A stretch of DNA of 64,000 nucleotides from Candidatus Gottesmanbacteria bacterium (GTDB taxonomy: Bacteria > Patescibacteriota > Microgenomatia > UBA10105 > UBA927): positions 299,282-363,281 of the forward strand of contig JAHFKK010000001.1 of the NCBI GenBank assembly GCA_023245335.1, read 5' to 3'. The notes under the pieces were generated by a model that saw nothing but the letters and a program-made list of their open reading frames with translations, did no database searches and was not told the DNA's origin. The position numbers were made by a program, and so were the translations under genes. Numbering within the stretch: position 1 is the first letter of the stretch; every line of letters starts with the position of its first letter. This document shows, in pieces, positions 13,641 through 54,155 of the stretch.

Positions 13641-14096
13641 ATGAAGTGTCCATATTGCACGAATACTGATACAGAAGTCATCGAAACGAGGGACAGCGAA
13701 GATCTGGCAGTCACACGCAGGCGTCGTACCTGTGCCAAGTGCGGGAAGAGATTTACGACGTACGAACGGATAGAGTCGATGCTTTTGACCGTTATAAAGA
13801 AAGACTCACGAAGAGAGCCATTTGATCGGGACAAACTCGCACGCGGTATTTGGCGGGCAAGCGGAAAAACGATGATTAAGGCAGAAGACGTGCGCCGGGT
13901 CGTCGACGAAGTAGAGCGAGAACTTATAGGCGGCAACACGACGGAAATTAAAAGCAAAAAAATAGGAGAACTGGTTGCTAAGAGGTTGAAAAAAATAGAT
14001 AAGATAGCGTATATCCGGTTTGCAAGCGTGTTTCGGCACTTTGTAGACCTGGAGGATTTCGAGGGAGAATTAAAAAAGTTGATTAAAAAGAAGTAA
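13641..14096 (+). CDS. nrdR: Transcriptional repressor NrdR
   Basis: MKCPYC..CAKCGKRF zinc ribbon followed by an ATP-cone domain; 151 aa. Confidence 0.9.
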   Translation: MKCPYCTNTDTEVIETRDSEDLAVTRRRRTCAKCGKRFTTYERIESMLLTVIKKDSRREPFDRDKLARGIWRASGKTMIKAEDVRRVVDEVERELIGGNTTEIKSKKIGELVAKRLKKIDKIAYIRFASVFRHFVDLEDFEGELKKLIKKK

Positions 14097-14099
14097 CGT

Positions 14100-16574
14100 A
14101 TGGATAATTTTACCGGTATCCGCCAAACAGTATTTGCAGACCGCTACGCACTAAAAAATGAAGCAGGTACCGCTATTGAACAAACCCCAGAAGAAATGTG
14201 GCATCGAGTCGCCCGCGCTATCGCTAAGGTAGAAAAAAAGGCAGATAGGGCGAAGTGGGAGGACGAATTTTACGAAGCCATGAAAGACTTCGTGTTGGTG
14301 CCGGGCGGGCGGATTCTTTCCGGAGCCGGTACGGGGTATAAGGTCACGTTCTACAATTGTTTTGTCATTCCGAGTCCCCATGATTCCCGTCAAGGAATCC
14401 TTACAACACTCTCGCAGATGGTTGAGATCATGTCGAGAGGCGGAGGAGTCGGTATAAACCTTTCGAGTTTGCGTCCGAGAGGTTCGCGGGTGCGGAAAGT
14501 AAACGGGTTTTCTTCCGGTCCGTGTAATTGGGCGGAGCTTTTTTCCGTCGCGACACGCGATATCATCCAGCAGGGCGGGAGTAGGCGCGGGGCGCTCATG
14601 CTCATGCTCTGGGATTGGCATCCGGATGTCGAAGAATTTATCACAGTAAAACAGGATCTCGCCAGGATAAATGGTGCTAATTTGTCCGTGTGTGTTTCGG
14701 ACGAATTTATGACCGCGGTCAAAAACGATGCCGACTGGGATCTCAAGTTTCCGGATACGCATGATCCGGACTACGACACGAAATGGGATGGGTATTTGCC
14801 GAACTGGATAGCACTAGGGAAAACGCCGATCGTCAAAAAAACCATCAAGGCACGTGCGCTGTGGGATTTGGTCGCAACCGCCGCATGGAAAAGCGCAGAG
14901 CCGGGTGTCGTTTTCATGGAGCGCTACAATAAATGGTTTAACAATAATTATTTTGAGTACGTCAATTGTGTGAATCCCTGCGGCGAGGAAGGATTGCCGA
15001 ACTGGGGTGTGTGTAACCTCACATCCATCAATTTATCTTCGTTGGTCAACGAGAACGGCGAGATGGATTTCGAACGACTCGCGCGCATAGCCAAAGTGGG
15101 CGTCCGGTTCCAGGACGATATCATAAATGCAGACACGTACATTTTTGACCAGATTAGAAAAGTGCAACTTCAGGGAGAGCGGCGGATAGGATTGGGGACC
15201 ATGGGACTCGGAGATGCGCTTATCAAAATGAAACTACGGTACGGTTCCGAAGAAAGTTTGGACGTGATCGACAAAATTTACCGGACCATACGGGATGCGG
15301 CATATGAGTCATCCATCAATCTCGCGAAAGAAAAGGGTCCGTTCCCGAAGATAAATAAGACGAAGCATGTCGCGGGATACTTCATACGCCAACTGCCGGA
15401 ACGTCTTAAGAAACAGATGAAGAAATACGGCGTCCGTAATTCGATGGTACTTCAGCAGGCGCCGACCGGCTCAACCTCGCTCATGGCCGGTGTGTCATCC
15501 GGAATTGAACCTGTTTACGAATTCGAATTTTTGCGCCGGGACCGGTTGGGCGAGCACACACTCCGACACCCGTTGTACGATGCGTGGTTTGAGTCGTTTA
15601 AAGAAAAAAACGGCCGTGAACCCACCAAAGAAGAACGGCCTGATTATTTCGTTTCCGCAAATGATCTCAGTCCGGAAGACCACGTCCGCGTCCAGGCGAT
15701 GATTCAAAAGTATGTTGATGCATCGATCAGTAAAACCGTCAACGCACCCCGTACACACACGGTAGAAGACGTGAAGCGTTTGTATACGCTTGCGTACGAC
15801 TTGGGATGTAAAGGGATAGCGTACATGCGGGAAGGAAGCCGCGAAGGGGTTCTCGTACGTAAAGAAGAAGCGCCGAAGGTAGAAGTGAAGCAGGAAGCCG
15901 TGATGTTGCCGGAAGTAAAGCCCCGACCTGCGGTCGTGCACGGATCGACCTACCAGATGGAAACTCCGATGGGACAGGCATATATCACGATCAACACAAA
16001 CGGCGGAGGACATCCCCACGAGTTGTTTGTCAATGTCGGTAAAGCCGGAAGCGATGTCACCGCCATGGCAGAAGCATTAGGGCGGCTCATATCGCTCATC
16101 CTTCGTATATCATCACCGATTTCACCCACGGAACGGATCCACAAAGTAGCGGCAGAGCTTATCGGTATCGGCGGCGCCCGAAGCCTTGGTTTTGGAGAAA
16201 ATCGTGTCAGGAGTCTGCCGGACGCTATAGCGAAAGCCATTGATAGGCATTTCGGATTTTTCAAAAAGCAACACGTTGATAGTCTTGTGGTAACTCCCGG
16301 GGCCGGGGATGGGATGATGACGAACGGTCATACCAATGGGAACGGGAATGGAAACGGTCATGCGGCTGCGATTCTTTTGAATGGTCACACCAACGGACAT
16401 ACTATACCTACGGAATCAGCAACGACTCCCGTAATCCCGACACCGCAACACGCATTTATCGCGACTTCCCCCCGTATGGTGACCGTCGATCTCTGTCCGA
16501 GCTGCGGCGAGGGAAGCCTGGTGTTTGAGGAATCCTGCAAAAAGTGTTACAGCTGCGGATACTCCGAATGTTAG
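14100..16574 (+). CDS. nrdJ: Class II (adenosylcobalamin-dependent) ribonucleotide reductase
   Basis: 824 aa with the NPCGE active-site motif, an (NGH)n low-complexity insert and a C-terminal Cys4 zinc ribbon. Adjacent nrdR and the downstream PduO-type adenosyltransferase support the B12-dependent class. Confidence 0.8.
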   Translation: MDNFTGIRQTVFADRYALKNEAGTAIEQTPEEMWHRVARAIAKVEKKADRAKWEDEFYEAMKDFVLVPGGRILSGAGTGYKVTFYNCFVIPSPHDSRQGILTTLSQMVEIMSRGGGVGINLSSLRPRGSRVRKVNGFSSGPCNWAELFSVATRDIIQQGGSRRGALMLMLWDWHPDVEEFITVKQDLARINGANLSVCVSDEFMTAVKNDADWDLKFPDTHDPDYDTKWDGYLPNWIALGKTPIVKKTIKARALWDLVATAAWKSAEPGVVFMERYNKWFNNNYFEYVNCVNPCGEEGLPNWGVCNLTSINLSSLVNENGEMDFERLARIAKVGVRFQDDIINADTYIFDQIRKVQLQGERRIGLGTMGLGDALIKMKLRYGSEESLDVIDKIYRTIRDAAYESSINLAKEKGPFPKINKTKHVAGYFIRQLPERLKKQMKKYGVRNSMVLQQAPTGSTSLMAGVSSGIEPVYEFEFLRRDRLGEHTLRHPLYDAWFESFKEKNGREPTKEERPDYFVSANDLSPEDHVRVQAMIQKYVDASISKTVNAPRTHTVEDVKRLYTLAYDLGCKGIAYMREGSREGVLVRKEEAPKVEVKQEAVMLPEVKPRPAVVHGSTYQMETPMGQAYITINTNGGGHPHELFVNVGKAGSDVTAMAEALGRLISLILRISSPISPTERIHKVAAELIGIGGARSLGFGENRVRSLPDAIAKAIDRHFGFFKKQHVDSLVVTPGAGDGMMTNGHTNGNGNGNGHAAAILLNGHTNGHTIPTESATTPVIPTPQHAFIATSPRMVTVDLCPSCGEGSLVFEESCKKCYSCGYSEC

Positions 16575-16586
16575 GATAACTATCAT

Positions 16587-17168
16587 ATGCCCATCTATAC
16601 CCGTACCGGGGACTCCGGTTCCACGTCGCTTTTTGGCGGTAAACGCGTCCTCAAATGCGAGGAGCTTGTCGATGTGTATGGATCTATCGATGAACTGAAT
16701 TCCTGGATCGGACGCATCGGGTCAGAACTTGAGTCTCTTGACGTGCAGCAGTTTTTAGCTGCCATACAATCAGATCTTTTTACCGTCGGCAGCCACCTTG
16801 CCGGTTGGAAGACGGATCTTTCTGTTTTACCAAAACGGGTGAAAGAAATGGAAGCGCGCATTGATATTTTGGAAACATCACTCCCGGCACTCAAGAATTT
16901 TATTCTCCCCGGAGGGACGCCGCTCGCTTCGGAAATCCATTTGGCGCGGGCTGTCTGTCGCAGGGTAGAACGGCAAACCGTCGCGTTAGGTCAAAAACCC
17001 TCCTCCGCTAAAGCTTCGACGGGCAGGCAGGAGGTCGACCCCAGAATTCTTGAGTATCTCAACCGATTGTCGGATCTTCTTTTTATGCTCGCACGATTCG
17101 TCAATAAAGAAGAAGGAATTGTAGAAACAGTGTGGAGCGGTATTGACCGCAACCAGAAAAAGAAGTAA
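16587..17168 (+). CDS. ATP:cob(I)alamin adenosyltransferase, PduO type
   Basis: The N-terminal MPIYTRTGDSGSTSL motif is characteristic. Confidence 0.8.
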   Translation: MPIYTRTGDSGSTSLFGGKRVLKCEELVDVYGSIDELNSWIGRIGSELESLDVQQFLAAIQSDLFTVGSHLAGWKTDLSVLPKRVKEMEARIDILETSLPALKNFILPGGTPLASEIHLARAVCRRVERQTVALGQKPSSAKASTGRQEVDPRILEYLNRLSDLLFMLARFVNKEEGIVETVWSGIDRNQKKK

Positions 17169-17185
17169 AAGTAGCTACGTAGAGA

Positions 17186-17270
17186 TTTGAGGAACGCTGT
17201 GTAATTCAGCGACTGTGCCGCAACGGTAACCCGTCTCGACTCGAGGCTGGAAGTCCGGAACTCCCCTCTA
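17186..17270 (+). promoter_or_regulatory. Candidate compact cobalamin-riboswitch-like element upstream of the DUF4430 gene
   Basis: Ordered partial matches to cobalamin aptamer elements: GAGGAA..GCUGUGUAAUUCAGC (GGUG..AA..CC-like hairpin), GCGACUGUG (cf. GCCACUG), and AGUCCGGAACUCCCC (B12-box-like). The CUCCCC run could pair with the AGGAGA SD at 17285-17290. Weak and unverified. Confidence 0.3.
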
Positions 17271-17293
17271 CGCATATCCCGAGCAGGAGATTT

Positions 17294-17713
17294 ATGAAAA
17301 AGATATATGCCGTCATTGCGGCGGTCCTCATTATAATAGGTATTGAAGTTTTCCGTGCGCGTATTCCTTCCGTACCGAACCATCAGACTTCCATTTCTTC
17401 GACTATTTCTCCCGCGCCCATAGTTTCAGTCGTTATAGATGATAGCACGCATATCGCCACATATTCGGCGGTAATGGCTGTGACTCCGTATGCTTCGTTG
17501 CAGGCGGTTATGGATGAGTTACATATACCGGTCACCGTCAAACGGTATGACTTTGGTGTTTTTGTCGACGGAGTGGGCGACAAAAAAAATACAAGTGATC
17601 GGGCTTGGATATATTTTGTGAATGGAATTTCAGGTAATGTCGCTTCCGATGAGATGAAATTACACGCGGGAGACGCCGTCACGTGGCGGTATATGAAGCC
17701 CGCAATGGAGTAA
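17294..17713 (+). CDS. DUF4430-like (transcobalamin/intrinsic-factor beta-domain-like) membrane-anchored protein, putative B12 binder
   Basis: N-terminal TM. C-terminal W.YFVNG...L..GD.V.W.Y pattern (AWIYFVNGISGNVASDEMKLHAGDAVTWRY). Confidence 0.55.
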   Translation: MKKIYAVIAAVLIIIGIEVFRARIPSVPNHQTSISSTISPAPIVSVVIDDSTHIATYSAVMAVTPYASLQAVMDELHIPVTVKRYDFGVFVDGVGDKKNTSDRAWIYFVNGISGNVASDEMKLHAGDAVTWRYMKPAME

Positions 17714-17717
17714 AACT

Positions 17718-18224
17718 ATGTTAGAGCTCGTCGTCCTTACAGCTATTGGTGTCATGTCGCGTTTGTTGCCGCACGTGCCGAACTTTACGGCGGTCGGAGG
17801 AATCGGACTTTTTTCGGGGGCCCGATATGGGGTGAAGAAAGGTCTCGTTGTGACAGGCGTCACCATGTTTATTTCCGATGCGATTGTAGGATTTCATCCG
17901 TTGGTATGGGCGACGTACGGAAGTTTGCTCGCTTCGGTTTTGCTGGGCGCGGCTTTCCTGAAGCGGCGTGATGGCTATCGCATTGCTGCATTCACGATCG
18001 GTTCCGGTTTGTTGTTTTTCATTGTGACGAATTTTGCCGTATGGGCGCAAGGACTGTGGTATCCGAAGACGGTAGCAGGACTTATAGACTGTTATGTGAT
18101 GGCGATCCCATTTTTACGCAATTCATTATCAGGAGATGCGTTTTATAGCGCTCTTCTCTTTGGTATAGAAGCGATAAGTGTTGTGAGGATTCGCCGTCCG
18201 TCAGGAGCGATAGAGGGCGCGTAA
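17718..18224 (+). CDS. Small polytopic membrane protein, possible ECF-type S component (CbrT-like) for cobalamin
   Basis: 168 aa with 4-5 hydrophobic helices. It abuts the DUF4430 gene by 4 nt. Context-based assignment. Confidence 0.4.
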   Translation: MLELVVLTAIGVMSRLLPHVPNFTAVGGIGLFSGARYGVKKGLVVTGVTMFISDAIVGFHPLVWATYGSLLASVLLGAAFLKRRDGYRIAAFTIGSGLLFFIVTNFAVWAQGLWYPKTVAGLIDCYVMAIPFLRNSLSGDAFYSALLFGIEAISVVRIRRPSGAIEGA

Positions 18225-18229
18225 TTTGT

Positions 18230-20224
18230 ATGGAAAAACCCGCACCGATGTTTGATCGATTCAACCGATATACGAAGACCGACTCATACGACCATGGACA
18301 AGGTGTCCAGTATAACGAGCGGATGATCGCCCGTGGGATTCCGGTGGTGAGTGACAAGAACGAGTCATCCGACAAACCGGTTTGGCGGGGGGACCATTCT
18401 TTTAACTCCGATGCTGCTTCGTATTCACTTATGCATTTCATAGAGCCGGAAGTTGCCTCCCAGCACCCGGACTGGGGCATAGAAAAGGTCAAAAAGGAAG
18501 CGCGAAATAGATTTACCCGCAGACTCGCCCAAGATCTTTCGTATGAAAATAGAGAAAACGATCATGAGGAAACCGTCGTCCAATGGCACCCGATAACAAC
18601 ATCAGACGGGTCGGTAGAGCTTGCGACAGAATACGGCGATGGGATGATTACGCTCAAGGAATTATGGAAACATACGAAAGAATATGCGGTGTTTGTCGGT
18701 AAACCCGAGGCATATAACCAGGAGGAAGAACGCGTGCAGCTTACTATGCAGGATGCGTTTGTCCGCGGCTCGTCGACGGGATTTGTGAGCGTCATAAGTC
18801 ATCCCGATGCCGTTCGGTATGTGCAGGTTTGGGAGAAAGCGCCTGACGGGGAAATTACATCAAAGCAAGTGGATCTTTTTTCGACAACCGGGAGAGATTT
18901 TTCGAAGGAAGAAAGTGAGAGGCTCATAGAGCATCTTGCAGTTTTTGACGGACACACGTCAATCGATGTCCGGCTGCCGGATTCGTCATATACGCATGTA
19001 TTTGTGGAGCGTGGTGCCGTCAAAGAACAAAATATTAGGATGATCGCTACGGCATTGGTGATGCAGCATGAGTATCATGCCGAAGCAGGTTTGTCAGAGT
19101 CGGTCATTCATATGCGGGATGCTCGACCCAAAGTCCGGGAAGCTGCGGACTCCATGGTGCTTTTAGGGCGGTTTCTGCATGATCACATATCAGAAACACT
19201 TGATAGGCTCAAAAATATAGACAGTAAAAAAGCGCCAAAGGATGCTGTCCCGATACATCCTGCGAGCAGGCGACCGCTTGAGCATCGAATCAAGAGAGGG
19301 CAAATATCCGCCGCGGAATCCATACTGCATGTCATATCCAGGTCCGAACAGTCACCCAAGAGAAGGATAGAGAGGGGTGAAAAACCCGTACACGCGGCTA
19401 TGGCGGAATGGTTTATATCGCAAACAATAGTTACAAATAGCAGGGATCTTCCGGCAGGACCGCATGCCGCTCTCTATTGGTTTAGTCTGCTCGAAGAGCG
19501 TGAAAGTCTCCAGTCGAGAGCGCCGTCTTTTGTAGATAAGCCAACTACGGAAACCCAAGTTGCCACATCACCGAACGTTTCTCCGTTAAAACATATTTGG
19601 GAGACCGTTTTTTTTGGGTTGCGACAAATACTTGCGCCCGGACGAAACGGGGAGACCATACTGACGAAAAAGAAAGATAGCGTGACAAAGAAAATAAAGC
19701 CGTCCGGGAACGAAGCATCTCGGCGACTCATACGGGCGCCGGAGCTATTACAGGTGTTCTTTCGTGGGGTACGTGATCGTTTTCAGAAGTTTATTCACGT
19801 TCCCTTGTACGTCAGGGAAGCCGCTCGAGTGATCGGTGTACCAAATCAGAATACAGAACTTCCGTTTGTGCCAAAAGAGAATAGAGAACTGCCGGCCGTG
19901 TATGTAAAAAGTCTTGAGGTTGCATGGGTTGTCTGGTATATGCTCCGGGCAGACAGAACATCCTCCGGGAAAGACGTGCCAGCACGAAATAGCGTAGGGA
20001 AAATTCCGTTATTGGTTCGTCGTGAAGTCCGAGCTACGGATCACCATGAAGAAGAAACTATGTGGGTGCTCCTTGGGATCATACGATACCTTACTCTTTT
20101 ACGGGAATCAGGGAGGGGAGGGCACATACAGGGAGTCCGGGCTAAACGGAATAAAGCGCGTCAGGCGTTGGGCTTCCGTACGATTTCCCGTGCCCGGGCC
20201 ATAATATTTACGATCGCTTCATGA
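18230..20224 (+). CDS. Large hypothetical protein (664 aa), no recognisable domain
   Basis: Long ORF in an operon with the TraD/VirD4-like ATPase. No TM segments and no Walker motifs. Confidence 0.6.
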   Translation: MEKPAPMFDRFNRYTKTDSYDHGQGVQYNERMIARGIPVVSDKNESSDKPVWRGDHSFNSDAASYSLMHFIEPEVASQHPDWGIEKVKKEARNRFTRRLAQDLSYENRENDHEETVVQWHPITTSDGSVELATEYGDGMITLKELWKHTKEYAVFVGKPEAYNQEEERVQLTMQDAFVRGSSTGFVSVISHPDAVRYVQVWEKAPDGEITSKQVDLFSTTGRDFSKEESERLIEHLAVFDGHTSIDVRLPDSSYTHVFVERGAVKEQNIRMIATALVMQHEYHAEAGLSESVIHMRDARPKVREAADSMVLLGRFLHDHISETLDRLKNIDSKKAPKDAVPIHPASRRPLEHRIKRGQISAAESILHVISRSEQSPKRRIERGEKPVHAAMAEWFISQTIVTNSRDLPAGPHAALYWFSLLEERESLQSRAPSFVDKPTTETQVATSPNVSPLKHIWETVFFGLRQILAPGRNGETILTKKKDSVTKKIKPSGNEASRRLIRAPELLQVFFRGVRDRFQKFIHVPLYVREAARVIGVPNQNTELPFVPKENRELPAVYVKSLEVAWVVWYMLRADRTSSGKDVPARNSVGKIPLLVRREVRATDHHEEETMWVLLGIIRYLTLLRESGRGGHIQGVRAKRNKARQALGFRTISRARAIIFTIAS

Positions 20225-20228
20225 TAGA

Positions 20229-20681
20229 ATGAAATTAATGACTGATACACTGCCCCAATCAAATCCGGCATCACCAAATCCTCCCCCGGGAGCGGTGCCG
20301 CAGCCGACAAGCGGCAGCATGGCGAAAGAAACAGGCCCGCATATCAGCTTCGTGGAAGCCCCGCTGGTGACTGAAGTAGGTCAGGAGACGCCTCTTTCGG
20401 ATGAAGTCGCAAAGGCTGGCGTGACGATCCGACCAACGACCGTGACTCTCCCGCCCTCCGTCCAAAAGCTGGGGGTGAAGGTGCTAGGTGAGGGGACTCC
20501 TGCGTCCGCGTCAAAGACCGCTACCCCGCTTCCTTTGACCGATGATCAGATTGCGACCGGATTACATCAGAGCATCAAAAGTTCGTGGCGGTGGCTTGCG
20601 GAATGGTGCGTCCGTCAGTTAAAACAGGCACATGTCCTGCTGAAGTCATTTCATGGAAAAATCGTGCGGCTCGATGAGTGA
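20229..20681 (+). CDS. Pro-rich hypothetical protein (150 aa)
   Basis: ORF between the 664-aa protein and the coupling-protein-like ATPase. Confidence 0.45.
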   Translation: MKLMTDTLPQSNPASPNPPPGAVPQPTSGSMAKETGPHISFVEAPLVTEVGQETPLSDEVAKAGVTIRPTTVTLPPSVQKLGVKVLGEGTPASASKTATPLPLTDDQIATGLHQSIKSSWRWLAEWCVRQLKQAHVLLKSFHGKIVRLDE

Positions 20682-20708
20682 GCGGCCGGTCTTTAAATTA
20701 TTTGTCTT

Positions 20709-23060
20709 ATGCCAATAGAATTTGCAGATATCATCTATCGGTTAGAAGTGTTGGGCGTGGTGTTGGTTATTTTGACTATGTGCGTGGTCGGACTTGCCGT
20801 GGTCGCGTACGTCGTTTTCCTCTTCTGGAAATATCGCGATCGCGAGAAACGATCACTTGATTATGTCCTCATGCAGATAGCTACTCCCCGTGACAATGAA
20901 ATAAAGATTGATGCCGCCGAGCAGTTATTTGCCAGTCTTTCCGCGATCCGTCACGGAGGGTTCTGGTCGTTTCTGAAGCCGCAGGAGCATATGTCGTTTG
21001 AAATCGTTGCGAAACGGGAAGATATCAGATTTTATGTGGCGGTACCCAAGCATTTGGTTGACCTCGTTGAGAAACAGATCCACGGGTCGTATCCGGGCGC
21101 TGATGTGAAGCAAGTCGATGAATACAATATTTTTAGTGAAAAGGGTAAGGTCGCATTTGCGGCACTTATTCCCAAAAATTCCGACTATCTGCCGATCCGC
21201 ACGTACCGTGATTTACCTGTTGACCCATTGTCCTCGCTTACCTCGAACCTTGCGAAGATGGGTGAGGATGAGGGGGCTGCCATACAAATCCTCATCCAGC
21301 CCGCAGACAGTAAATGGAGTAGTTTGGGTCGATCGTATATAGCCAAAACCAAAAAGAATGAAGCGAATCCTGAAAAAGCGAGTTTCAAAGTAGACCCGAA
21401 GACGCTTGAATCCATCGAACAAAAAACGTCGAAACCCGGATTTAATACCGTCATTCGTTTGGTCGTCAACGCCGCCACAAAAGAAGCCGCCGACGCGAAT
21501 CTGGAGAACCTCGAGACGTCATTTCATCAGTTCACATCTGATCATAATCATTTTTCCAAAGTGAAACATCCGTTAAAAAAGTTTTTTATGATAGATTTCG
21601 TATATCGGTATTTCCCAATTGCAAATTTCCCGTTTTTCAAGCAGTACGGCGTCCTCAACAGTGACGAGCTGGCATCAATTTATCATCTGCCGAATAAATT
21701 GATTGAGACCGCGCATATTTTTTGGCTGAATGCCAAGCGGGCTCCCGCTCCAATGCAGATTCCGTCGAGCGGGTTATTTTTGGGCGTGTCCCGGTATAGG
21801 GGCGTCGACCGGCCGATATTTGTGAGTGATGAAGACCGGAGGCGCCATCTTTATGTCATAGGGAAAACGGGTACCGGAAAATCACAACTCTTGGAAGAGT
21901 TGGTGCTACAGGACATGAGAGCGGGAAAGGGACTCGCGGTCATAGATCCGCACGGAGACCTTATCGAAGGAATACTGGAGCGCATGCCTGCCGAACGGGC
22001 AGAGGATGTCATCTATTTTGATCCTTCCGATACCGACCGTCCCGTGGGACTCAATATGATCGAGAGTCATAGTGAACAGGAGATGCATTTTGTGGCGACG
22101 TCCATCGTCGGACTCATGTACAAACTGTTCGACCCGATGAAAACCGGCATCATCGGTCCCCGATTCGAGCATGCGATACGAAATGCCATATTGACGGTAC
22201 TTCAGGCGATGTCCGGGGGTACGTTTATTGAAGTCGTTCAGGTATTACAGCGGCCTGACTTTGTGCAGGAACTTCTGCCCCGGGTGTCGGATCCTATCGT
22301 CCGCCGGTACTGGACCGATCAGATCGCCCAGACGGCGGATTTCCACAAATCCGAAGTTCTGGACTACATCGTTTCCAAATTCGGCAGATTCATTACCAAT
22401 AAACTCATGCGTAATATCATCGGACAATCACAGTCGACACTCGATTTCCGTAAAGCGATGGATGACGGCAAGATACTGCTGGTCAACCTCGCCAAAGGAA
22501 AACTTGGGGAAGAAAACAGTAACTTTTTGGGGCTTATCCTCGTGCCGAAAATATTGATTGCCGCCATGAGCAGGCAGGATATACCGGAAGAAAAGCGTCG
22601 TGATTTCTATCTCTATGTCGATGAGTTCCAAAACTTCGCCACCCCTGATTTCGCGCAAATACTTTCCGAGGCCCGGAAATACCGCTTGAACCTGATCGTC
22701 GCAAACCAATTTATCGGTCAGATGGAAGAAGAGGTAAAAAATGCGGTTTTCGGAAATGTGGGAACGCTTATCACATTCCGTATCGGAGTGACGGATGCCA
22801 ATTACATTCAGCACGAATATACACCGACGTTTAATGAGACCGATCTTATCAACATTGATAAATATAATGCCTATGTCAAAACGATTGTCCACAACGAACC
22901 GGTGAAGCCGTTTAGCATTGATCTCACGAAAGATATGTCAAAAGTTATGGAAACACAGAATCTTGAAGTGGCCAAAGCAGTGGTTCAGTTATCCCGCCTC
23001 AAATACGGGAAGCCGAGGGAACTTGTGGAAGCGGAGATTACCGAACGTGCGAGACTATAA
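20709..23060 (+). CDS. TraD/TrwB/VirD4-like type IV coupling-protein-family ATPase
   Basis: N-terminal TM helices, Walker A GKTGTGKS and Walker B LYVDEFQNF; 783 aa. Confidence 0.75.
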   Translation: MPIEFADIIYRLEVLGVVLVILTMCVVGLAVVAYVVFLFWKYRDREKRSLDYVLMQIATPRDNEIKIDAAEQLFASLSAIRHGGFWSFLKPQEHMSFEIVAKREDIRFYVAVPKHLVDLVEKQIHGSYPGADVKQVDEYNIFSEKGKVAFAALIPKNSDYLPIRTYRDLPVDPLSSLTSNLAKMGEDEGAAIQILIQPADSKWSSLGRSYIAKTKKNEANPEKASFKVDPKTLESIEQKTSKPGFNTVIRLVVNAATKEAADANLENLETSFHQFTSDHNHFSKVKHPLKKFFMIDFVYRYFPIANFPFFKQYGVLNSDELASIYHLPNKLIETAHIFWLNAKRAPAPMQIPSSGLFLGVSRYRGVDRPIFVSDEDRRRHLYVIGKTGTGKSQLLEELVLQDMRAGKGLAVIDPHGDLIEGILERMPAERAEDVIYFDPSDTDRPVGLNMIESHSEQEMHFVATSIVGLMYKLFDPMKTGIIGPRFEHAIRNAILTVLQAMSGGTFIEVVQVLQRPDFVQELLPRVSDPIVRRYWTDQIAQTADFHKSEVLDYIVSKFGRFITNKLMRNIIGQSQSTLDFRKAMDDGKILLVNLAKGKLGEENSNFLGLILVPKILIAAMSRQDIPEEKRRDFYLYVDEFQNFATPDFAQILSEARKYRLNLIVANQFIGQMEEEVKNAVFGNVGTLITFRIGVTDANYIQHEYTPTFNETDLINIDKYNAYVKTIVHNEPVKPFSIDLTKDMSKVMETQNLEVAKAVVQLSRLKYGKPRELVEAEITERARL

Positions 23061-23147: not shown

Positions 23148-24542
23148 ATGAATGGAATAACGGCAGACGCGTCACTGGAAAAAAAACATAACGTAGTTGT
23201 TTACGTTTTTAACATGTCGGAGGATGTCTGGCCGTTTATTTCCTCCATGTCGGATGCGAATGCCCGGTCCGCGGAAATTGTAGAAAACGCATACCTTGGG
23301 GACTCGCGCATGTTTCAGTTTGCGGGTGAGGACAGTGATGTCCTCTATATCACACCGCAGGCCGTGAGTGAATACTTCCTCGAATATTTCCATTCGTTAT
23401 TTCCTCATACCAATCTGACCGTTTTGACCACAGGACAGCATAGCGGTGTCATATGCGAGGATATGCTCCATGATCCATCTATCATGAATGCGTTGGTTGA
23501 GGCCGCCAATTCATCCAAGAAACTTATAATCACAAGTTACGCGGTAACGCAGCCGTTTCTCCAGTTAGTGAGAGCGCTTCGGGAGAAGGGGTTGACAGTC
23601 GTCACTCCGGAAGCACCGGATGAAGAAGATGCATGGACGGTAAATTTTTTCGGCAGTAAGTCGGGCATACGGCAGCTTGCGCAACAAAGTGAACATGAAG
23701 AACCGGATTTTCAGATGGCAGACGGCGTCATTTGTTTTGGTATAGAGGATGCCTCCAAGATTGCTGCCATCCGGTACGTGAAGGAACAGGGAGTGGTCAT
23801 AAAGACCAACAAGGGCCATTCCGGTATGGGAGTCGAGATATTCCGTCCCGGGGATTTACCCGGGGACTTTCATGCATGCCAGGCGAAGATTTATTCATTA
23901 CTTGAGAAAGATGCATATTGGCAGAAGTTTCCGATTGTTATAGAAAAGCTTATCCTGGTGAGTAACACGGTTGCCGGCGGGAATCCGAACGTGGAGTTTA
24001 AAATCAGCCGGAACGGACGCATTGATTTTCTTTATCACTGTGGTGTGTTGGTCACAAAAGACGGCGTGTTTCACGGCATAGAGGTGGGGCATGACATCAT
24101 GCCGGAACGGGTAGCGGCCCGAATCAAGGATACGGGTTTCTATATAGCGGAACGATTTGCCGCAGCCGGATACCGCGGATATTTTGACGTTGATTATGTC
24201 GCGGGGAGAAACGGCGAAGTGTATGTCGCCGAGTCAAACGTCAGAAGTACCGGCGGCACATTTGTGTATACGACGGCTGTTGCTCTCTTCGGTGAAAACT
24301 TCATGTTCGACACGTATTTATTTTCCAATAACGGGTATATGATCCCGCATCTGAAGCAACTTACATTCGAGAAGCTTATGGAGCGGCTTTCTCCGGTGCT
24401 TTTTAGTAACCAAACCAAAGAGGGAATAGTCCTCACGTCAGAGAACCTGCTGCGGATGCAAAAATTTTCGTTCATTATCTTTGCACCGACCAAAAAGCGC
24501 GCCTACGAAATTGAGGCTTCCATGGAGTCGCTCCTCAAATAA
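23148..24542 (+). CDS. ATP-grasp superfamily ligase, substrate unknown
   Basis: VVIKTNKGHSGMGVEIF and YRGYFDVDYV..GEVYVAESNVR motifs with a roughly 190-aa N-terminal pre-domain. Confidence 0.6.
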   Translation: MNGITADASLEKKHNVVVYVFNMSEDVWPFISSMSDANARSAEIVENAYLGDSRMFQFAGEDSDVLYITPQAVSEYFLEYFHSLFPHTNLTVLTTGQHSGVICEDMLHDPSIMNALVEAANSSKKLIITSYAVTQPFLQLVRALREKGLTVVTPEAPDEEDAWTVNFFGSKSGIRQLAQQSEHEEPDFQMADGVICFGIEDASKIAAIRYVKEQGVVIKTNKGHSGMGVEIFRPGDLPGDFHACQAKIYSLLEKDAYWQKFPIVIEKLILVSNTVAGGNPNVEFKISRNGRIDFLYHCGVLVTKDGVFHGIEVGHDIMPERVAARIKDTGFYIAERFAAAGYRGYFDVDYVAGRNGEVYVAESNVRSTGGTFVYTTAVALFGENFMFDTYLFSNNGYMIPHLKQLTFEKLMERLSPVLFSNQTKEGIVLTSENLLRMQKFSFIIFAPTKKRAYEIEASMESLLK

Positions 24543-24576: not shown

Positions 24577-24648
24577 GGGCGCGTAGCTCAGTGGTAGAGC
24601 GCTACTCTTATAAAGTAGATGTCCTTGGTCCGATCCCAAGCGCGCCCA
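24577..24648 (+). tRNA. tRNA with anticodon TAT (UAU), putative tRNA-Ile reading AUA; unusual T-loop (TCCGATC, C at position 55)
   Basis: Hand-folded cloverleaf: acceptor GGGCGCG/CGCGCCC, D arm GCTC-AGTGGTA-GAGC, anticodon stem CTACT/AGTAG with loop CTTATAA, T arm CTTGG-TCCGATC-CCAAG, discriminator A. CCA is not encoded. Confidence 0.6.
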
Positions 24649-24688: not shown

Positions 24689-25237
24689 ATGTCTGAATTC
24701 GTCGTATTAGTAGATGAGAAGAATAATCCAATAGGCACTGCGGATAAAAATGCCGTGCATACGGAAAGTACTCCACTGCATCGCGGATTTTCACTTTTCG
24801 TATTCAATTCCAAACGGCAATTTTTGCTTACGAAACGGGCGTCAACGAAAAAAACATTTCCCGGAGTATGGACGAATACGGTCTGCGGACACCCGGCGCC
24901 TGAAGAATCGGTGACGGAAGCGGCCTCGCGAAGATTGCGTGACGAACTGGGGATTACCGGGGTAGATGTACAGGAGCTTGCGCCATATCGGTACCGGGTT
25001 GCCGACCAAAACGGTATCGTAGAAAACGAAATATGCCCGATCCTGGTGGGACAGTATCAGGGAGATCCTGTGCCGGTCTCCGGCGAGGTTGAAGACTGGA
25101 AATGGGTAGACTGGAATGAATTCCTGCGGGAGATTCACGATAATCCTATGGCGTACTCACCCTGGAGTGTTGCGGAAGCAAAGATCCTCGCCCGGAGCCA
25201 GCTTCAGCTTATTGATAGGGCCCCACGTGCGGTTTAG
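24689..25237 (+). CDS. idi: Isopentenyl-diphosphate delta-isomerase, type 1 (Nudix)
   Basis: 182 aa with a conserved Cys/Glu Nudix-like core (TNTVCGHP..E). Confidence 0.8.
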   Translation: MSEFVVLVDEKNNPIGTADKNAVHTESTPLHRGFSLFVFNSKRQFLLTKRASTKKTFPGVWTNTVCGHPAPEESVTEAASRRLRDELGITGVDVQELAPYRYRVADQNGIVENEICPILVGQYQGDPVPVSGEVEDWKWVDWNEFLREIHDNPMAYSPWSVAEAKILARSQLQLIDRAPRAV

Positions 25238-51209: not shown

Positions 51210-54155
51210 ATGCAGAAGATCCCCGTAATTGACCGTAAATTAAATGATGAACAAAAGGCCGCAGTAGAGTACGGCGACGGACCGCTCCTTATTATCGCCG
51301 GCGCCGGTACCGGCAAGACGACGGTCATCACCGAGCGCATCAAGCACCTCATATCGACGAGCCGCGCGAATCCGTCGGAGATTCTTGCTTTGACCTTTAC
51401 CGAAAAAGCCGCACGCGAGATGGAAGAGCGGGTGGACGTCATCATGCCCTACGGTGTGACGGAAATGTGGATTTCCACGTTTCATAAATTCTGCGACCGC
51501 TTGCTTCGTCAGGAAGCGATCCATATCGGGTTGAATCCCGCATACCGTCTGATGACCGATACCGATGCTACGATGCTTTTCCGGCAGAATCTGTTTCAAT
51601 TTGACCTCAATTATTTCCGGCCTCTGGGCAATCCGACCAAGTTTATAAGCGGCATGCTGCAGCATTTTTCGAGATTGCAGGATGAGGATGTGAGTCCGCA
51701 AGAATATCGTGCGTACGTCAAAAAACTAGAGAGCGGGAAAAAAGAGAAATCCGAAGAAGACGAGTTGGAACTAGAGAAATATGTGGAGCTCGCCCGTGTG
51801 TACGGCGAGTATCAGGCGCTCAAGGAAAAAGAGGGCCGCATGGATTTCGGCGACCTTATCATCCAGACGCTTAAATTATTCCGGACGCGAAAAAATCTGT
51901 TGTCTGTCTACCGGAAACAGTTCAAATACATCCTCGTCGACGAATTCCAGGATACCAATATCGCCCAAAATGAACTCATCGCGCTTCTTTCCGGGGAGAA
52001 ACAAAATATCACGGCGGTATGTGATGACGACCAGAGTATATATAAATTCCGGGGAGCGGCGGTATCAAATGTTCTTGCATTCCGTAAGCACTTCACGAAG
52101 GCAAAACTCATTGTCCTGACCAAAAACTACCGGTCGACGCAGTCGATCCTCGACGCATCGTATCAACTTATCCAGCACAACAATCCAGATAGACTGGAAG
52201 TCAAGGAAAAGATAAGTAAAAAACTTGTGGCCGAGCGGGGGACAAACGGCCGCTGGCCGTCACTTTTGTATCATGACCGGGTCGAAAACGAAGCGGAGGG
52301 TGCCGTCAAAGAAATACAAAAACTCCATGAGGAATCCGGCAGGAAGTATGCATGGAAGGATGTCGCGATCTTAGTCCGGGCCAACAGTCACGCGGATCCT
52401 TTTATCCGTGCGTGTATGAGACTCGGCGTGCCGTTCCAGTTCCTGGGGCCGGGACAGCTTTTCCGCCAGCCGGAGGTCATGGACCTCATCGCGTACTTGC
52501 AGGTCATCCAGCATTTTGACAACAACGTAGCATTTTTTCGGGTGTTGTCCATGAAATATTTTGATATGCCCCCGCGGGATTTTGCGGCTATAGCGAATCT
52601 CGCCCGGAAGCAAAACATGTCCGTATTTGAGGCGAGCGAAGTCATGGCGGGGAAAAGGATTTTGGACGGCATAACCCTGCCGTTTATTTCCGAGGAAACC
52701 AAGGAGAAACTCGGCACCATTATTTCTATGATCCATAGGCACCTGGGGTTGGTGACCAAAGAGACGGCGGGGCAGATCCTTTTCTATTTTTTACAGGATT
52801 CCGGCTTTATCAAAAATATCCTGGAATATTCGACCCGGTCGGATGAGCAAAAAGCAAATAACGTGTCGAAATTTTTCAGCAAACTCAAAACTTATGAGAC
52901 GGATCATGCAGATGCCAGTGTGACCGCGGTTCTCGACTGGATAGAACTTTCGATGGAACTTGGAGAATCACCGCTTGCCGGGGATACCGACTGGGTGCAA
53001 AACGACGCTGTCAATATCCTGACGATTCATAGTGCGAAGGGTCTGGAGTTCCCCGTAGTTTTTTTGGTCAATCTCGTATCTCAGCGGTTTCCGACGACCG
53101 AGCGGCACGAACAGATCCCTATTCCGGAAGCGCTTATCAAGGAAGAATTGCCCGAAGGAGATTATCATCTGGAGGAAGAGCGCAGGCTTTGTTACGTCGG
53201 CATGACGCGTGCCCGGGATCTCTTGTATCTGACCGGAGCAAATTACTACGGCGAAGGCAAACGTGAGAAAAAATTATCGCCGTTTGTCGGAGAAGTGATA
53301 GGGGACGCAGCACGTGTGCCTATCGTGCCGCCCAAGGCGCTGCAGATGTCACTTCTGGACTGGAAAAAAGAGGATGCAACGGACACGACGAAAGTGACGA
53401 AAGCGCCGATTACGTATCTGTCATATTCTCAAATAGAAACGTTCCGGTTGTGCCCTTTGCACTATAAACTGAGGTACCTTTTGAATATTCCGACTCCGCC
53501 GTCCGCATCGCTTTCGTTTGGAACCAGCATTCATGCGGTGCTCAGAGATTTTTATGCCATGCACGAAAACGGAGAGAAGGTGACCAAGTCACTCCTCACA
53601 GATTTATTGGTGACCCACTGGAAACGCGAGGGGTATGAAAATAAACGATATGAGGAAGAAATGAAAAAGCGAGGAGAACGGTATTTGTCCGAATATTTTG
53701 ATAAAGAATTTCACCCTGATACGAAAACCGTTGCACTGGAGCAGTCGTTTACCGTACCAATAGCAACTGATACCGGATCACTTAAAATAGGCGGGAAGAT
53801 TGACCGCGTCGATATCTTGCCGGGAGGCAACATAGAGATCATAGACTATAAGACGGGCCGTATGCCCAGTAAGCGCGAGGTAGACACAAACCTGCAACTT
53901 TCGATGTACGCCATTGCCGCGACCAGCATTCCCGGTACGCCGTTTGGTAAGAACCCTGAAGACATTGTTCTCTCTTTGTATTTTTTTGATTCACAAACCC
54001 GCATATCGACGACCCGCACCGCGGATCAACTGCAAAAGGAGAAGGGAACGATCATTGATATCGCGCACGCGATCGAAACTTCGGACTTCATGTGTTCCGG
54101 CAATCAATTATGTGCTGCATGCGAATATGCGATGTTTTGTAACGTCTCCGGTTAG
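51210..54155 (+). CDS. UvrD/PcrA-family SF1 helicase fused to a C-terminal PD-(D/E)XK nuclease with a Cys4 Fe-S cluster motif (AddA/Cas4-like architecture)
   Basis: N-terminal GAGTGKT Walker A and UvrD motifs. C-terminal nuclease motifs IDYKTG, QL..Y and Cys pattern C..(CX5CX2CX5C). Confidence 0.8.
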   Translation: MQKIPVIDRKLNDEQKAAVEYGDGPLLIIAGAGTGKTTVITERIKHLISTSRANPSEILALTFTEKAAREMEERVDVIMPYGVTEMWISTFHKFCDRLLRQEAIHIGLNPAYRLMTDTDATMLFRQNLFQFDLNYFRPLGNPTKFISGMLQHFSRLQDEDVSPQEYRAYVKKLESGKKEKSEEDELELEKYVELARVYGEYQALKEKEGRMDFGDLIIQTLKLFRTRKNLLSVYRKQFKYILVDEFQDTNIAQNELIALLSGEKQNITAVCDDDQSIYKFRGAAVSNVLAFRKHFTKAKLIVLTKNYRSTQSILDASYQLIQHNNPDRLEVKEKISKKLVAERGTNGRWPSLLYHDRVENEAEGAVKEIQKLHEESGRKYAWKDVAILVRANSHADPFIRACMRLGVPFQFLGPGQLFRQPEVMDLIAYLQVIQHFDNNVAFFRVLSMKYFDMPPRDFAAIANLARKQNMSVFEASEVMAGKRILDGITLPFISEETKEKLGTIISMIHRHLGLVTKETAGQILFYFLQDSGFIKNILEYSTRSDEQKANNVSKFFSKLKTYETDHADASVTAVLDWIELSMELGESPLAGDTDWVQNDAVNILTIHSAKGLEFPVVFLVNLVSQRFPTTERHEQIPIPEALIKEELPEGDYHLEEERRLCYVGMTRARDLLYLTGANYYGEGKREKKLSPFVGEVIGDAARVPIVPPKALQMSLLDWKKEDATDTTKVTKAPITYLSYSQIETFRLCPLHYKLRYLLNIPTPPSASLSFGTSIHAVLRDFYAMHENGEKVTKSLLTDLLVTHWKREGYENKRYEEEMKKRGERYLSEYFDKEFHPDTKTVALEQSFTVPIATDTGSLKIGGKIDRVDILPGGNIEIIDYKTGRMPSKREVDTNLQLSMYAIAATSIPGTPFGKNPEDIVLSLYFFDSQTRISTTRTADQLQKEKGTIIDIAHAIETSDFMCSGNQLCAACEYAMFCNVSG

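Follow-up and report, generated by a model that had tools for sequence, protein, structure and literature searches.

The locus analysed here raises the question of what occupies the 125-nt spacer between pduO and a DUF4430 gene in a 64,000-nt stretch of contig JAHFKK010000001.1 from Candidatus Gottesmanbacteria, a lineage of the candidate phyla radiation (CPR, or Patescibacteria); this whole stretch is called the window, and all positions given are window coordinates. The spacer lies between the pduO stop codon (17166-17168) and an AUG at 17294, and an initial annotation, made from the sequence alone, had proposed that it holds a compact class II-type cobalamin riboswitch placed before corrinoid-binding or uptake genes. 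This proposal was borne out by a match to the Rfam family RF01689, covarying homologous spacers, and B12-linked genes downstream. As a whole, the findings are best explained by a genuine compact class II cobalamin riboswitch with a Cbl-IIb layout and a proposed translational-repression mechanism, a reading in which we place high confidence. The identity of the element as a cobalamin riboswitch appears nearly certain from comparison of sequences, which assigns it to the cobalamin riboswitch clan (Rfam CL00101); it would be a known type of element and a new member in an operon of a CPR bacterium, predicted to bind cobalamin and to change gene expression. The observations that carry this reading are clan homology, a conserved position, covarying helices, an invariant platform, complementarity between loops L5 and L13, and B12-related downstream proteins. 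Pfam searches also confirmed both flanking genes as originally annotated, with pduO, encoding an ATP:cob(I)alamin adenosyltransferase, directly upstream (16587..17168, + strand; PF01923, Cob_adeno_trans, 1.6e-53; TIGR00636, PduO_Nterm, 5.7e-54) and the gene for the 139-aa DUF4430 protein, the presumed first regulated gene, downstream (17294..17713, + strand; PF14478, 1.1e-9).

A permissive E-value scan of the 64-kb window against 4227 Rfam families placed RF01689 (AdoCbl-II) at 17179-17271 over the full model (1-81), with E = 0.0069, the second-best match after a tRNA; when only a 351-nt region was searched, the same match reached E = 3.8e-5. The Rfam comparison suggested by the initial annotation therefore gave a significant full-length match, albeit one whose 29.8 bits fell below the gathering score of 36.5. 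RF00174 scored lower than RF01689 in the window and was removed by clan competition. The RF01689 score suffered at three sites: 25 nt are inserted in the P6 loop, 6 model positions are deleted in the joining segment J1/3, and pairs of the 5-bp P3 in the model are non-canonical. In a large protein collection, the DUF4430 protein had five non-identical homologues (the word-based search found 6 proteins), whose contigs carried pduO upstream where the contig reached that far and a DUF6580 gene followed by a ~660-aa gene downstream. All five distinct homologous pduO/DUF4430 spacers matched the cobalamin clan at the same place, and four passed the gathering score, two with RF01689 (locus L008, 47.7 bits; L010, 42.7 bits) and two with RF00174 (L009, 39.7 bits; L012, 32.4 bits; gathering 31.5); the fifth, L004, reached 34.9 bits to RF01689, slightly under the gathering score. 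The stems of these orthologous spacers differed by compensatory changes, and their 3' element AUCCCGAGCAGGA was identical in all. Among further family loci, 15 of 26 passed the gathering score, giving 19 of the 31 CPR-type loci tested overall. Most of these 19 pass RF01689, with a plain L6 loop, and six pass RF00174 and carry an L6 hairpin (L009, L012, L021, L022, L036, and L040). About 40% of the riboswitch family lies under the gathering thresholds of both models, mainly members with a medium-sized P6 hairpin (L016, L017, L019, L023, L025, L027, L041, L043, L050, L004, L030, L047, and the window at 17179-17271). Standard annotation misses such members because RF01689 penalises the P6 hairpin together with the short P3 and J1/3, and RF00174 expects a long extension. 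A model built from 31 sequences with the window left out (R1) gave a single match in the 64 kb, at 17173-17299, with 99.6 bits and an E-value of 1.4e-23, and under the clade model the window scored 112.3 bits, fourth of 47.

The wider family was collected from GTDB species genomes and Joint Genome Institute (JGI) metagenomes with a DNA pattern that was derived from the window and anchored on the aptamer core; the pattern placed no constraint on P1, P4, L5, the L6 insert, or any sequence 3' of J6/3, and it fixed AGTCMGGAAC. It recovered 39 loci from genomes and 55 from metagenomes and was far more productive than the word-based DUF4430 search. Named matches belonged mostly to Candidatus Gottesmanbacteria, Woesebacteria, and the 'Patescibacteria group', the others being actinomycetes, Spirochaetota, a Lambdaproteobacterium, and a Holophagae metagenome-assembled genome (MAG). 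Upstream sequence is available for 31 CPR-type loci, and in 29 of them the riboswitch lies 3-64 nt past the end of a pduO homologue; where the contig permits, nrdJ is found before pduO and nrdR before nrdJ. Across the related loci, PduO is 41% to 83% identical to that of the window. Several contigs labelled 'uncultured Gammaproteobacteria' (third-party annotation MAGs; L014, L017, L022, L023, L025, L028, L038, L041, and L046) nevertheless show an nrdR-nrdJ-pduO-riboswitch-orphan-gene synteny like that of Gottesmanbacteria contigs, with 41-79% protein identity to the window, and their taxonomic label looks doubtful. Our literature search found no paper on cobalamin riboswitches in Patescibacteria/CPR, nor on DUF6580.

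In the homologous spacers, a check suggested by the initial annotation, related genomes keep the structure through covariation, and many of these relatives pass the Rfam gathering score. Unguided RNAalifold prediction on 32 distinct CPR-type sequences recovered P1, P3, P4, P5, P6, and P13. In a MAFFT alignment made without the window, register shifts lost P1 from the RNAalifold consensus, and the model was rebuilt with explicit structure. In the resulting model-guided alignment of 47 sequences, 97.4% of cells were paired, compared with 77.6% in shuffles and 30-51% in slid registers; the covariation score was 0.457 against 0.106 in shuffled alignments, a value that none of the 500 shuffles reached (0/500), and 14 pairs showed double changes. 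These pair counts lean towards the structure because the alignment was fitted to the model; the independent RNAalifold result agrees. A four-way junction of P3-P4-P5-P6 closed by P1 was found, with its helices backed by covariation.

The aptamer spans 17178..17272 from the 5' to the 3' strand of P1 (all features of the element lie on the + strand), as delimited by the RF01689 match at 17179-17271 and by model R1. P1 pairs CGUAGAG (17178-17184) with CUCUACG (17266-17272) in the minimum-free-energy fold and begins 10 nt past the pduO stop codon; all six modelled pairs change on both sides among the 47 sequences, and P1 is mostly 6-9 bp long across 66 distinct family members. J1/3 (AUUU, 17185..17188) is 4 nt long and faces a 2-nt bulge; its sequence is not conserved, the RF01689 model has 7 positions here, and its length is 2-5 nt in 64 of 66 family members and 6 nt in the other two. 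P3 (GAG, 17189-17191; CUC, 17261-17263) consists of 3 bp, invariant as G-C/A-U/G-C in 32/32 sequences, and is followed by a CC bulge (17264-17265). The core junction J3/4 (GAA, 17192..17194), invariant in alignment A1, forms the GAGGAA motif with P3 and aligns to GGGAAA in RF01689. P4 (CGCUG, 17195-17199; CAGCG, 17207-17211) encloses the 7-nt loop L4, UGUAAUU, with the T-loop consensus GUGNAAUUC; four of its five pairs covary, both partners being changed in 17-30 of the 47 sequences, and no sequence breaks a pair. P5 comprises the invariant pairs U17214-A17222 and G17215-C17221 (17214..17222) and presents L5, UGCCG (17216-17220), which is complementary to L13 as its kissing-loop partner. The middle pair of P6 (CGG, 17224-17226; CCG, 17255-17257) is G-C in 29 sequences and U-A in 18, with none broken. 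P6 encloses L6 (17227-17254), in which UAA (17227-17229) and AAGU (17251-17254) are split by an inserted 21-nt hairpin (17230..17250), predicted by folding as 8 bp with an ACU loop; this short P6 extension corresponds to the 25-nt insertion relative to RF01689. Inserts of 17-40 nt occur in L6 in 28 of 66 family members, each with a predicted hairpin and with unrelated sequences, and the other 38 of 66 have a minimal L6. J6/3 (GAA, 17258..17260) belongs to the B12-box-like AGUCCGGAACUC; A1 shows no variation in AGTCMGGAACTC, although the pattern itself had fixed AGTCMGGAAC. The core nucleotides as a group (J3/4 GGAA, CUGU...GCAAC around P5, the AGYCMGG B12-box, and the L4 T-loop) match the RF01689 consensus with high posterior probability and do not vary in A1, where the search pattern had fixed some of them. 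A J1/13 linker, CAUA (17273..17276), mostly 4-8 nt long in the family, leads to the expression platform; in env8 the linker is 7 nt long, and function depends on linker length (PMC5028336). The motifs quoted in the initial annotation were all located within this architecture, namely GAGGAA at 17189-17194, the hairpin CGCUG-UGUAAUU-CAGCG at 17195-17211, GCGACUGUG at 17209-17217, AAGUCCGGAACUCCCC, which holds the CUCCCC run, at 17251-17266, and AGGAGA at 17285-17290, 19 nt after that run.

Downstream of the linker, UCC (17277-17279) and GGA (17286-17288) form the 3-bp hairpin P13 (17277..17288), which RNAalifold predicts independently, around the loop L13, CGAGCA (17280-17285). The GGA strand is also part of the Shine-Dalgarno (SD) sequence AGGAG (17285..17289), which, by inspection of the sequence, precedes the AUG at 17294 by 4 nt. 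The motif YCCGAGCAGGA, which lies outside the search pattern, is present in 66/66 UGCCG-type members, in most of them after a 4-8-nt linker; the UCC that pairs with the SD GGA is kept in 64 of 66 members and replaced by the wobble-compatible UUC in the other two, and 32 of 39 GGAG-type relatives have an ATG no more than 12 nt downstream. L5 and L13 can pair as 5'-CG(A)GCA-3' with 5'-UGCCG-3', forming five Watson-Crick pairs with one bulged A. ViennaRNA gave UGCCG:CG(A)GCA as the optimal duplex, at -4.3 kcal/mol, a pairing that only 19 of 4096 random hexaloops (0.46%) can form. CG-N-GCA follows downstream in 32/32 UGCCG-type sequences, and patterns from other L5 types fit only 1-5 of the 32. 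Across the lineages caught by the pattern, L5/L13 complementarity covaries: L5 UCCCG occurs with L13 CGAGGA or CGUGGA in actinomycetes and one spirochaete, CCCCG with CGAGGG in L048 and L068, GCGCG with CGCGC, within AUCCU[CGCGCAC]AGGAU, in L024, and UAGCG with CGC(A)UA in L083, and only four pairs join GCCCG to CGAGG in spirochaetes and L033 and ACCCG to CGAGG in L013. A kissing loop between L5 and L13 is common to Cbl-I and Cbl-II, has at least one unpaired nucleotide, and is contacted by the ligand in both loops, with the ribosome-binding site (RBS) sequestered (PMC5028336; PMC7367189). An env8-like P13 (GAG...CUC) was rejected as a candidate, having no conserved 3' partner downstream of GGAGA.

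These features suggest that the element probably acts through a translational kissing-loop mechanism. The aptamer at 17178-17272 would bind a cobalamin, most likely adenosylcobalamin, and the bound ligand would steady the kissing loop of L5 with L13. Since the 3' strand of P13 is the SD core, the SD would then be locked up, repressing translation of the DUF4430 B12-binding protein and, by coupling, that of the BtuM-like DUF6580 transporter, and the nrdJ and pduO cistrons upstream on the same mRNA would stay expressed. When B12 is plentiful, the switch would close and the uptake proteins would not be made, with the reductase and the adenosyltransferase still being translated. The initial annotation had instead envisaged that the CUCCCC run (17261-17266) serves as an anti-Shine-Dalgarno element that, in a real aptamer, pairs with AGGAGA (17285-17290) in one state, and CUCC is indeed complementary to GGAG in the window. 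The CUC portion, however, owes its invariance to its role as the 3' half of P3. A C follows it as the fourth base in just 24 of 66 members, and in just 19 of the 39 GGAG carriers, whereas P13 keeps UCC for GGA, or UUC in two cases, in 66/66. Pairing of the P3 strand with the SD would moreover hide the SD without ligand, the opposite of what an uptake operon needs. This part of the early proposal did not hold up, and we consider such a pairing very unlikely to be the regulatory step.

Several observations weigh against the reading of the spacer as a Cbl-IIb-like riboswitch acting on translation. At gathering thresholds, the tRNA was the sole Rfam match in the 64-kb window, and the riboswitch went unreported because its RF01689 match lies below the gathering score. 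The single-sequence folding energy was unremarkable (z = -0.43), and support for the riboswitch comes from homology and covariation, not from stability. P3 has only 3 bp in the window, against 5 bp in the Rfam model, which flags mismatches there, and J1/3 is not long enough for the 5-nt T-loop by which Cbl-IIa organises its pocket. By itself, P13 is weak (-0.8 kcal/mol). Because the search pattern was taken from the window, conservation at its fixed positions is circular; no constraint was placed on the stems, L5, or the platform. The covariation of the kissing loop is provided by distant lineages, because L5 and L13 never vary within the CPR clade, and some of the distant lineages compared are G+C-rich, where chance matches are common. 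The sub-threshold Rfam score, the short P3, and the unremarkable folding energy would also be expected of a decayed riboswitch relic without present function. However, 66 distinct members keep every helix by compensatory changes and the platform is invariant, while PduO diverges to 41% identity, and the window is among the top scores of the clade model; a relic is therefore highly improbable.

The element is embedded in a conserved gene order, nrdR (13641-14096, the furthest upstream of the listed cistrons), nrdJ (14100-16574, encoding the class II B12-dependent ribonucleotide reductase), pduO, the riboswitch, the DUF4430 gene, the DUF6580 gene, and further genes, which we infer to be polycistronic and to include co-transcription of the riboswitch with pduO. 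NrdJ is the only obvious B12 enzyme of these reduced CPR cells. Its C-terminus (16290-16574) contains a low-complexity stretch rich in Asn, Gly, His, and Thr (NGHTNGNGNGNGH...NGHTNGHT) and, after it, a CxxC...CxxC zinc-ribbon-like tail. A promoter and terminator scan of 16400-17500 found no promoter-like or terminator-like site, which lends weak support to co-transcription; the switch is thus most likely transcribed with nrdJ-pduO and would act on translation of the next cistron, and the missing signals fit an operon-internal translational switch.

In some relatives, the platform is followed by a different arrangement. L058, L069, L075, L078, L086, L099, and L100, and also L015, L043, and L074, have no AUG after the platform and instead carry a hairpin with a U-run; part of the 5' arm of these terminator-like regions (CUUCUCGGGA, CUUCUUGGGA, or CCUCUCGGGU) is complementary to the invariant UCCCGAG. 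The sequences suggest that the same L13 module may also be wired to terminator/antiterminator control in about ten relatives. Such loci, with a hairpin and U-run complementary to the platform and no AUG, raise the question of whether the element in the window likewise acts on transcript elongation or stability (Rho-dependent or intrinsic termination, or RNase entry) and not on ribosome access, and translational riboswitches often also work via Rho or RNA decay (PMC6158498). The window, in contrast, has no terminator-like site in the scanned interval, and its GGAG lies 4 nt before the AUG, an SD-AUG arrangement shared by 32 of the 39 GGAG-type relatives. Control of elongation or stability is accordingly an unlikely account of the window, for which we favour repression of translation.

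To place the element among known classes, we took the class definitions from PMC7367189 and PMC6158498. Cbl-IIb, a subclass defined by Batey and co-workers, has a short mismatched or paired J1/3 and a small P6 hairpin and is adenosylcobalamin-specific, according to Fig. 1 of PMC7367189. The window resembles it in its four-way junction P3-P6, the lack of a P2 module, the short J1/3 (AUUU), the L5-L13 kissing loop, and a P6 bearing only a short (8-bp) hairpin, and also in the predicted ligand, adenosylcobalamin, which would fit the pduO/nrdJ context. It differs from Cbl-IIb in that its P3 has only 3 bp, the P6 hairpin is optional in the orthologous family (28 of 66), the platform UCC[CGAGCA]GGA is invariant across the family, and the element lies between cistrons and not in a 5' leader. 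No Cbl-IIb structure was available to compare it with (PMC7367189).

The archetype of Cbl-IIa (RF01689) is the env8 hydroxocobalamin riboswitch (PDB 4FRN/4FRG). In Cbl-IIa, the last five J1/3 nucleotides form a T-loop that contacts J6/3 (PMC6158498), and in the kissing loop two purines at a fixed position stay unpaired and are strictly conserved within that family (PMC5028336). The window shares with env8 the best-scoring Rfam model, the same core, the same L4 T-loop sequence GUGNAAUUC, and a 3-bp P13 hairpin that would offer the RBS region to L5 in a translational OFF switch, a direction that in the window we consider likely. Env8 presumably also shares the platform motif CGAGCA(A)GGAG. Env8 has the 5-nt J1/3 T-loop, a 5-bp P3, a plain L6, and two bulged purines, whereas the window has a 4-nt J1/3, a 3-bp P3, an L6 hairpin, and one bulged A, and its SD lies in the P13 stem and not in the loop. 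Of the Cbl-IIa hallmarks absent from the window (the 5-nt J1/3 T-loop, the plain L6, and the two bulged purines), a plain L6 is found in 38 of 66 relatives. Cbl-I (RF00174) belongs to the same clan and shares the core and a variable single bulge in the kissing loop, but the window lacks its P2 loop-stem-loop, with only 4 nt between P1 and P3, and lacks the P7-P11 extension, P6 bearing a single 21-nt hairpin instead. In Cbl-I, of which Escherichia coli btuB and T. tengcongensis 4GMA are examples, the P7-P11 extension builds the adenosyl pocket with J11/10 adenosines.

Adenosylcobalamin is the ligand that we predict, with a modest preference, by analogy with Cbl-IIb. The alternative, which is possible and somewhat less favoured, is another corrinoid, such as hydroxo- or methylcobalamin as in Cbl-IIa, cobinamide, or cobamides broadly. 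The best Rfam model is RF01689, whose archetype env8 prefers hydroxo-/methylcobalamin (PMC7367189), class II selectivity forms a spectrum set by small peripheral changes (PMC6158498), and the minimal-L6 relatives have a IIa-like P6. Adenosylcobalamin is favoured by the combination of a short J1/3 and a short P6 hairpin, the adenosylcobalamin-specific Cbl-IIb layout as drawn in PMC7367189, by the absence of both the 5-nt J1/3 T-loop and the two bulged kissing-loop purines of Cbl-IIa, and by an operon that makes (PduO) and uses (NrdJ) this very form of the cofactor.

The two genes that follow the platform are consistent with a role in B12 uptake. Transcobalamin-type B12 binders carry DUF4430 as their C-terminal domain (PMC4350170), and the N-terminal hydrophobic segment of the window's DUF4430 protein implies that it is probably membrane-anchored or secreted. 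The second gene (17718..18224, + strand; PF20221, 3.5e-43) encodes a 168-aa DUF6580 membrane protein, named 'putative transport protein' by NCBI and predicted to be a BtuM/ECF-S-component-like (ECF, energy-coupling factor) cobalamin transporter. Its AlphaFold2 model, built with 54 homologues, reached a mean predicted local distance difference test (pLDDT) score of 94.7, and its best PDB folds were BtuM with cyanocobalamin (8c7p) and with hydroxycobalamin (8ovv), at template-modelling (TM) scores of 0.66-0.69 and a probability of 1.00, followed by ECF S-components for folate, thiamin, and riboflavin. The sequence identity to BtuM, however, is only about 16%. Single-sequence PDB searches with DUF4430 and DUF6580 returned noise only, and a 10-sequence DUF6580 profile gave a marginal match to 6FNP chain A (E 0.05), tied with the unrelated OST3 and to be read as a lead only. 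This chain is an unnamed 182-residue 'membrane protein' in an ECF-CbrT B12-transporter entry, and we interpret it as the S-component CbrT. Neither an ECF module nor BtuCDF genes were seen adjoining the DUF6580 gene. With an S-component fold in the DUF6580 model, which recalls BtuM and ECF-CbrT, and a transcobalamin-type domain in DUF4430, it is plausible that the modelled transporter and the DUF4430 protein form a B12 capture-and-import module.

Beyond these two genes, the block continues with an orphan gene encoding a 664-aa protein of a Patescibacteria-restricted family (18230-20224, + strand), a gene for a 150-aa protein (20229-20681, + strand), and a gene for a 783-aa membrane-anchored TrwB/VirD4/HerA-like ATPase with a strong match to phrog_5156, of unknown function (20709-23060, + strand). 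Judged by the spacing of the open reading frames, gaps from the DUF4430 gene through the ATPase gene measure only 4-27 nt, suggesting one operon over this span. A gene for a pre-ATP-grasp/ATP-grasp ligase-like protein (23148-24542) follows after an 87-nt gap, and a tRNA gene (24577-24648, + strand; 69.7 bits), with the ATP-grasp-like gene before it and a NUDIX hydrolase gene (24689-25237) after it, likely marks the operon end. The genes at 18230..23060 are probably in the same transcript as the riboswitch, and their control by it can only be inferred. In all related loci of sufficient length, the riboswitch is followed by homologues of the block, in the conserved order of an optional DUF4430 and DUF6580 pair, the ~660-aa orphan (or an unrelated large protein), the ~150-aa protein, the ~783-aa ATPase, and the ATP-grasp ligase.

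All 66 homologues in the orphan family are unnamed and lack a Pfam domain. An N-terminal domain of ~230 aa (residues ~60-290) is highly conserved, contains many invariant His/Asp/Glu residues, and was confidently modelled by AlphaFold2, and the protein beyond it is poorly conserved with low model confidence. The 664-aa protein had no match in Pfam, NCBIfam, or PHROGs, and a Foldseek search against the PDB returned nothing meaningful (probability <=0.18). In at least nine related loci, the riboswitch SD directly serves the orphan start codon (loci listed with the orphan family: L019, L023, L027, L038, L047, L050, L051, L021, and L039). The riboswitch occurs twice in three loci (L039, L058, and L069), with a copy on either side of the DUF4430-DUF6580 pair; the copies are ~1.1 kb apart in L058 and L069 and lie at 925-1027 and 1976-2078 in L039, where the second is placed immediately before the orphan gene. 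L078, L100, L061, and L073 have a single copy, which follows DUF4430-DUF6580. The riboswitch might thus mark a CPR-specific B12-responsive gene set wider than the two uptake genes, a proposal that we advance tentatively and regard as rather doubtful. The downstream block could be a new B12-acquisition machine or a B12-sparing bypass; by analogy, the latter could involve, for example, the uptake and processing of external DNA or deoxynucleotides when NrdJ cannot work. B12 riboswitches control B12-independent isozymes elsewhere, which provides a parallel for a bypass. Elsewhere in the window, at 53145-53243 (+ strand), a match to RF03531 (Clostridioides difficile small RNA n00280) scored 35.5 bits against a gathering score of 65.2, with E 0.054, and is probably due to chance.

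A B12 riboswitch before B12-uptake genes is in itself an ordinary arrangement. The present analysis describes a riboswitch family that is well conserved among Gottesmanbacteria, Woesebacteria, and other CPR/Patescibacteria and of which the roughly 40% of members that score below threshold constitute a blind spot of standard Rfam annotation. Orthologues at one position, with the P6 hairpin present or absent and with SD-occluding or terminator-type platforms on the same invariant L13 module, offer a natural series for studying the evolution of peripheral elements and Cbl-IIb selectivity. The riboswitch also assigns a putative B12-linked role to the BtuM-like DUF6580 and flags the orphan family and the VirD4-like ATPase cluster as candidate B12-responsive genes, and the family as a whole would show how reduced CPR cells tune B12 salvage for NrdJ.

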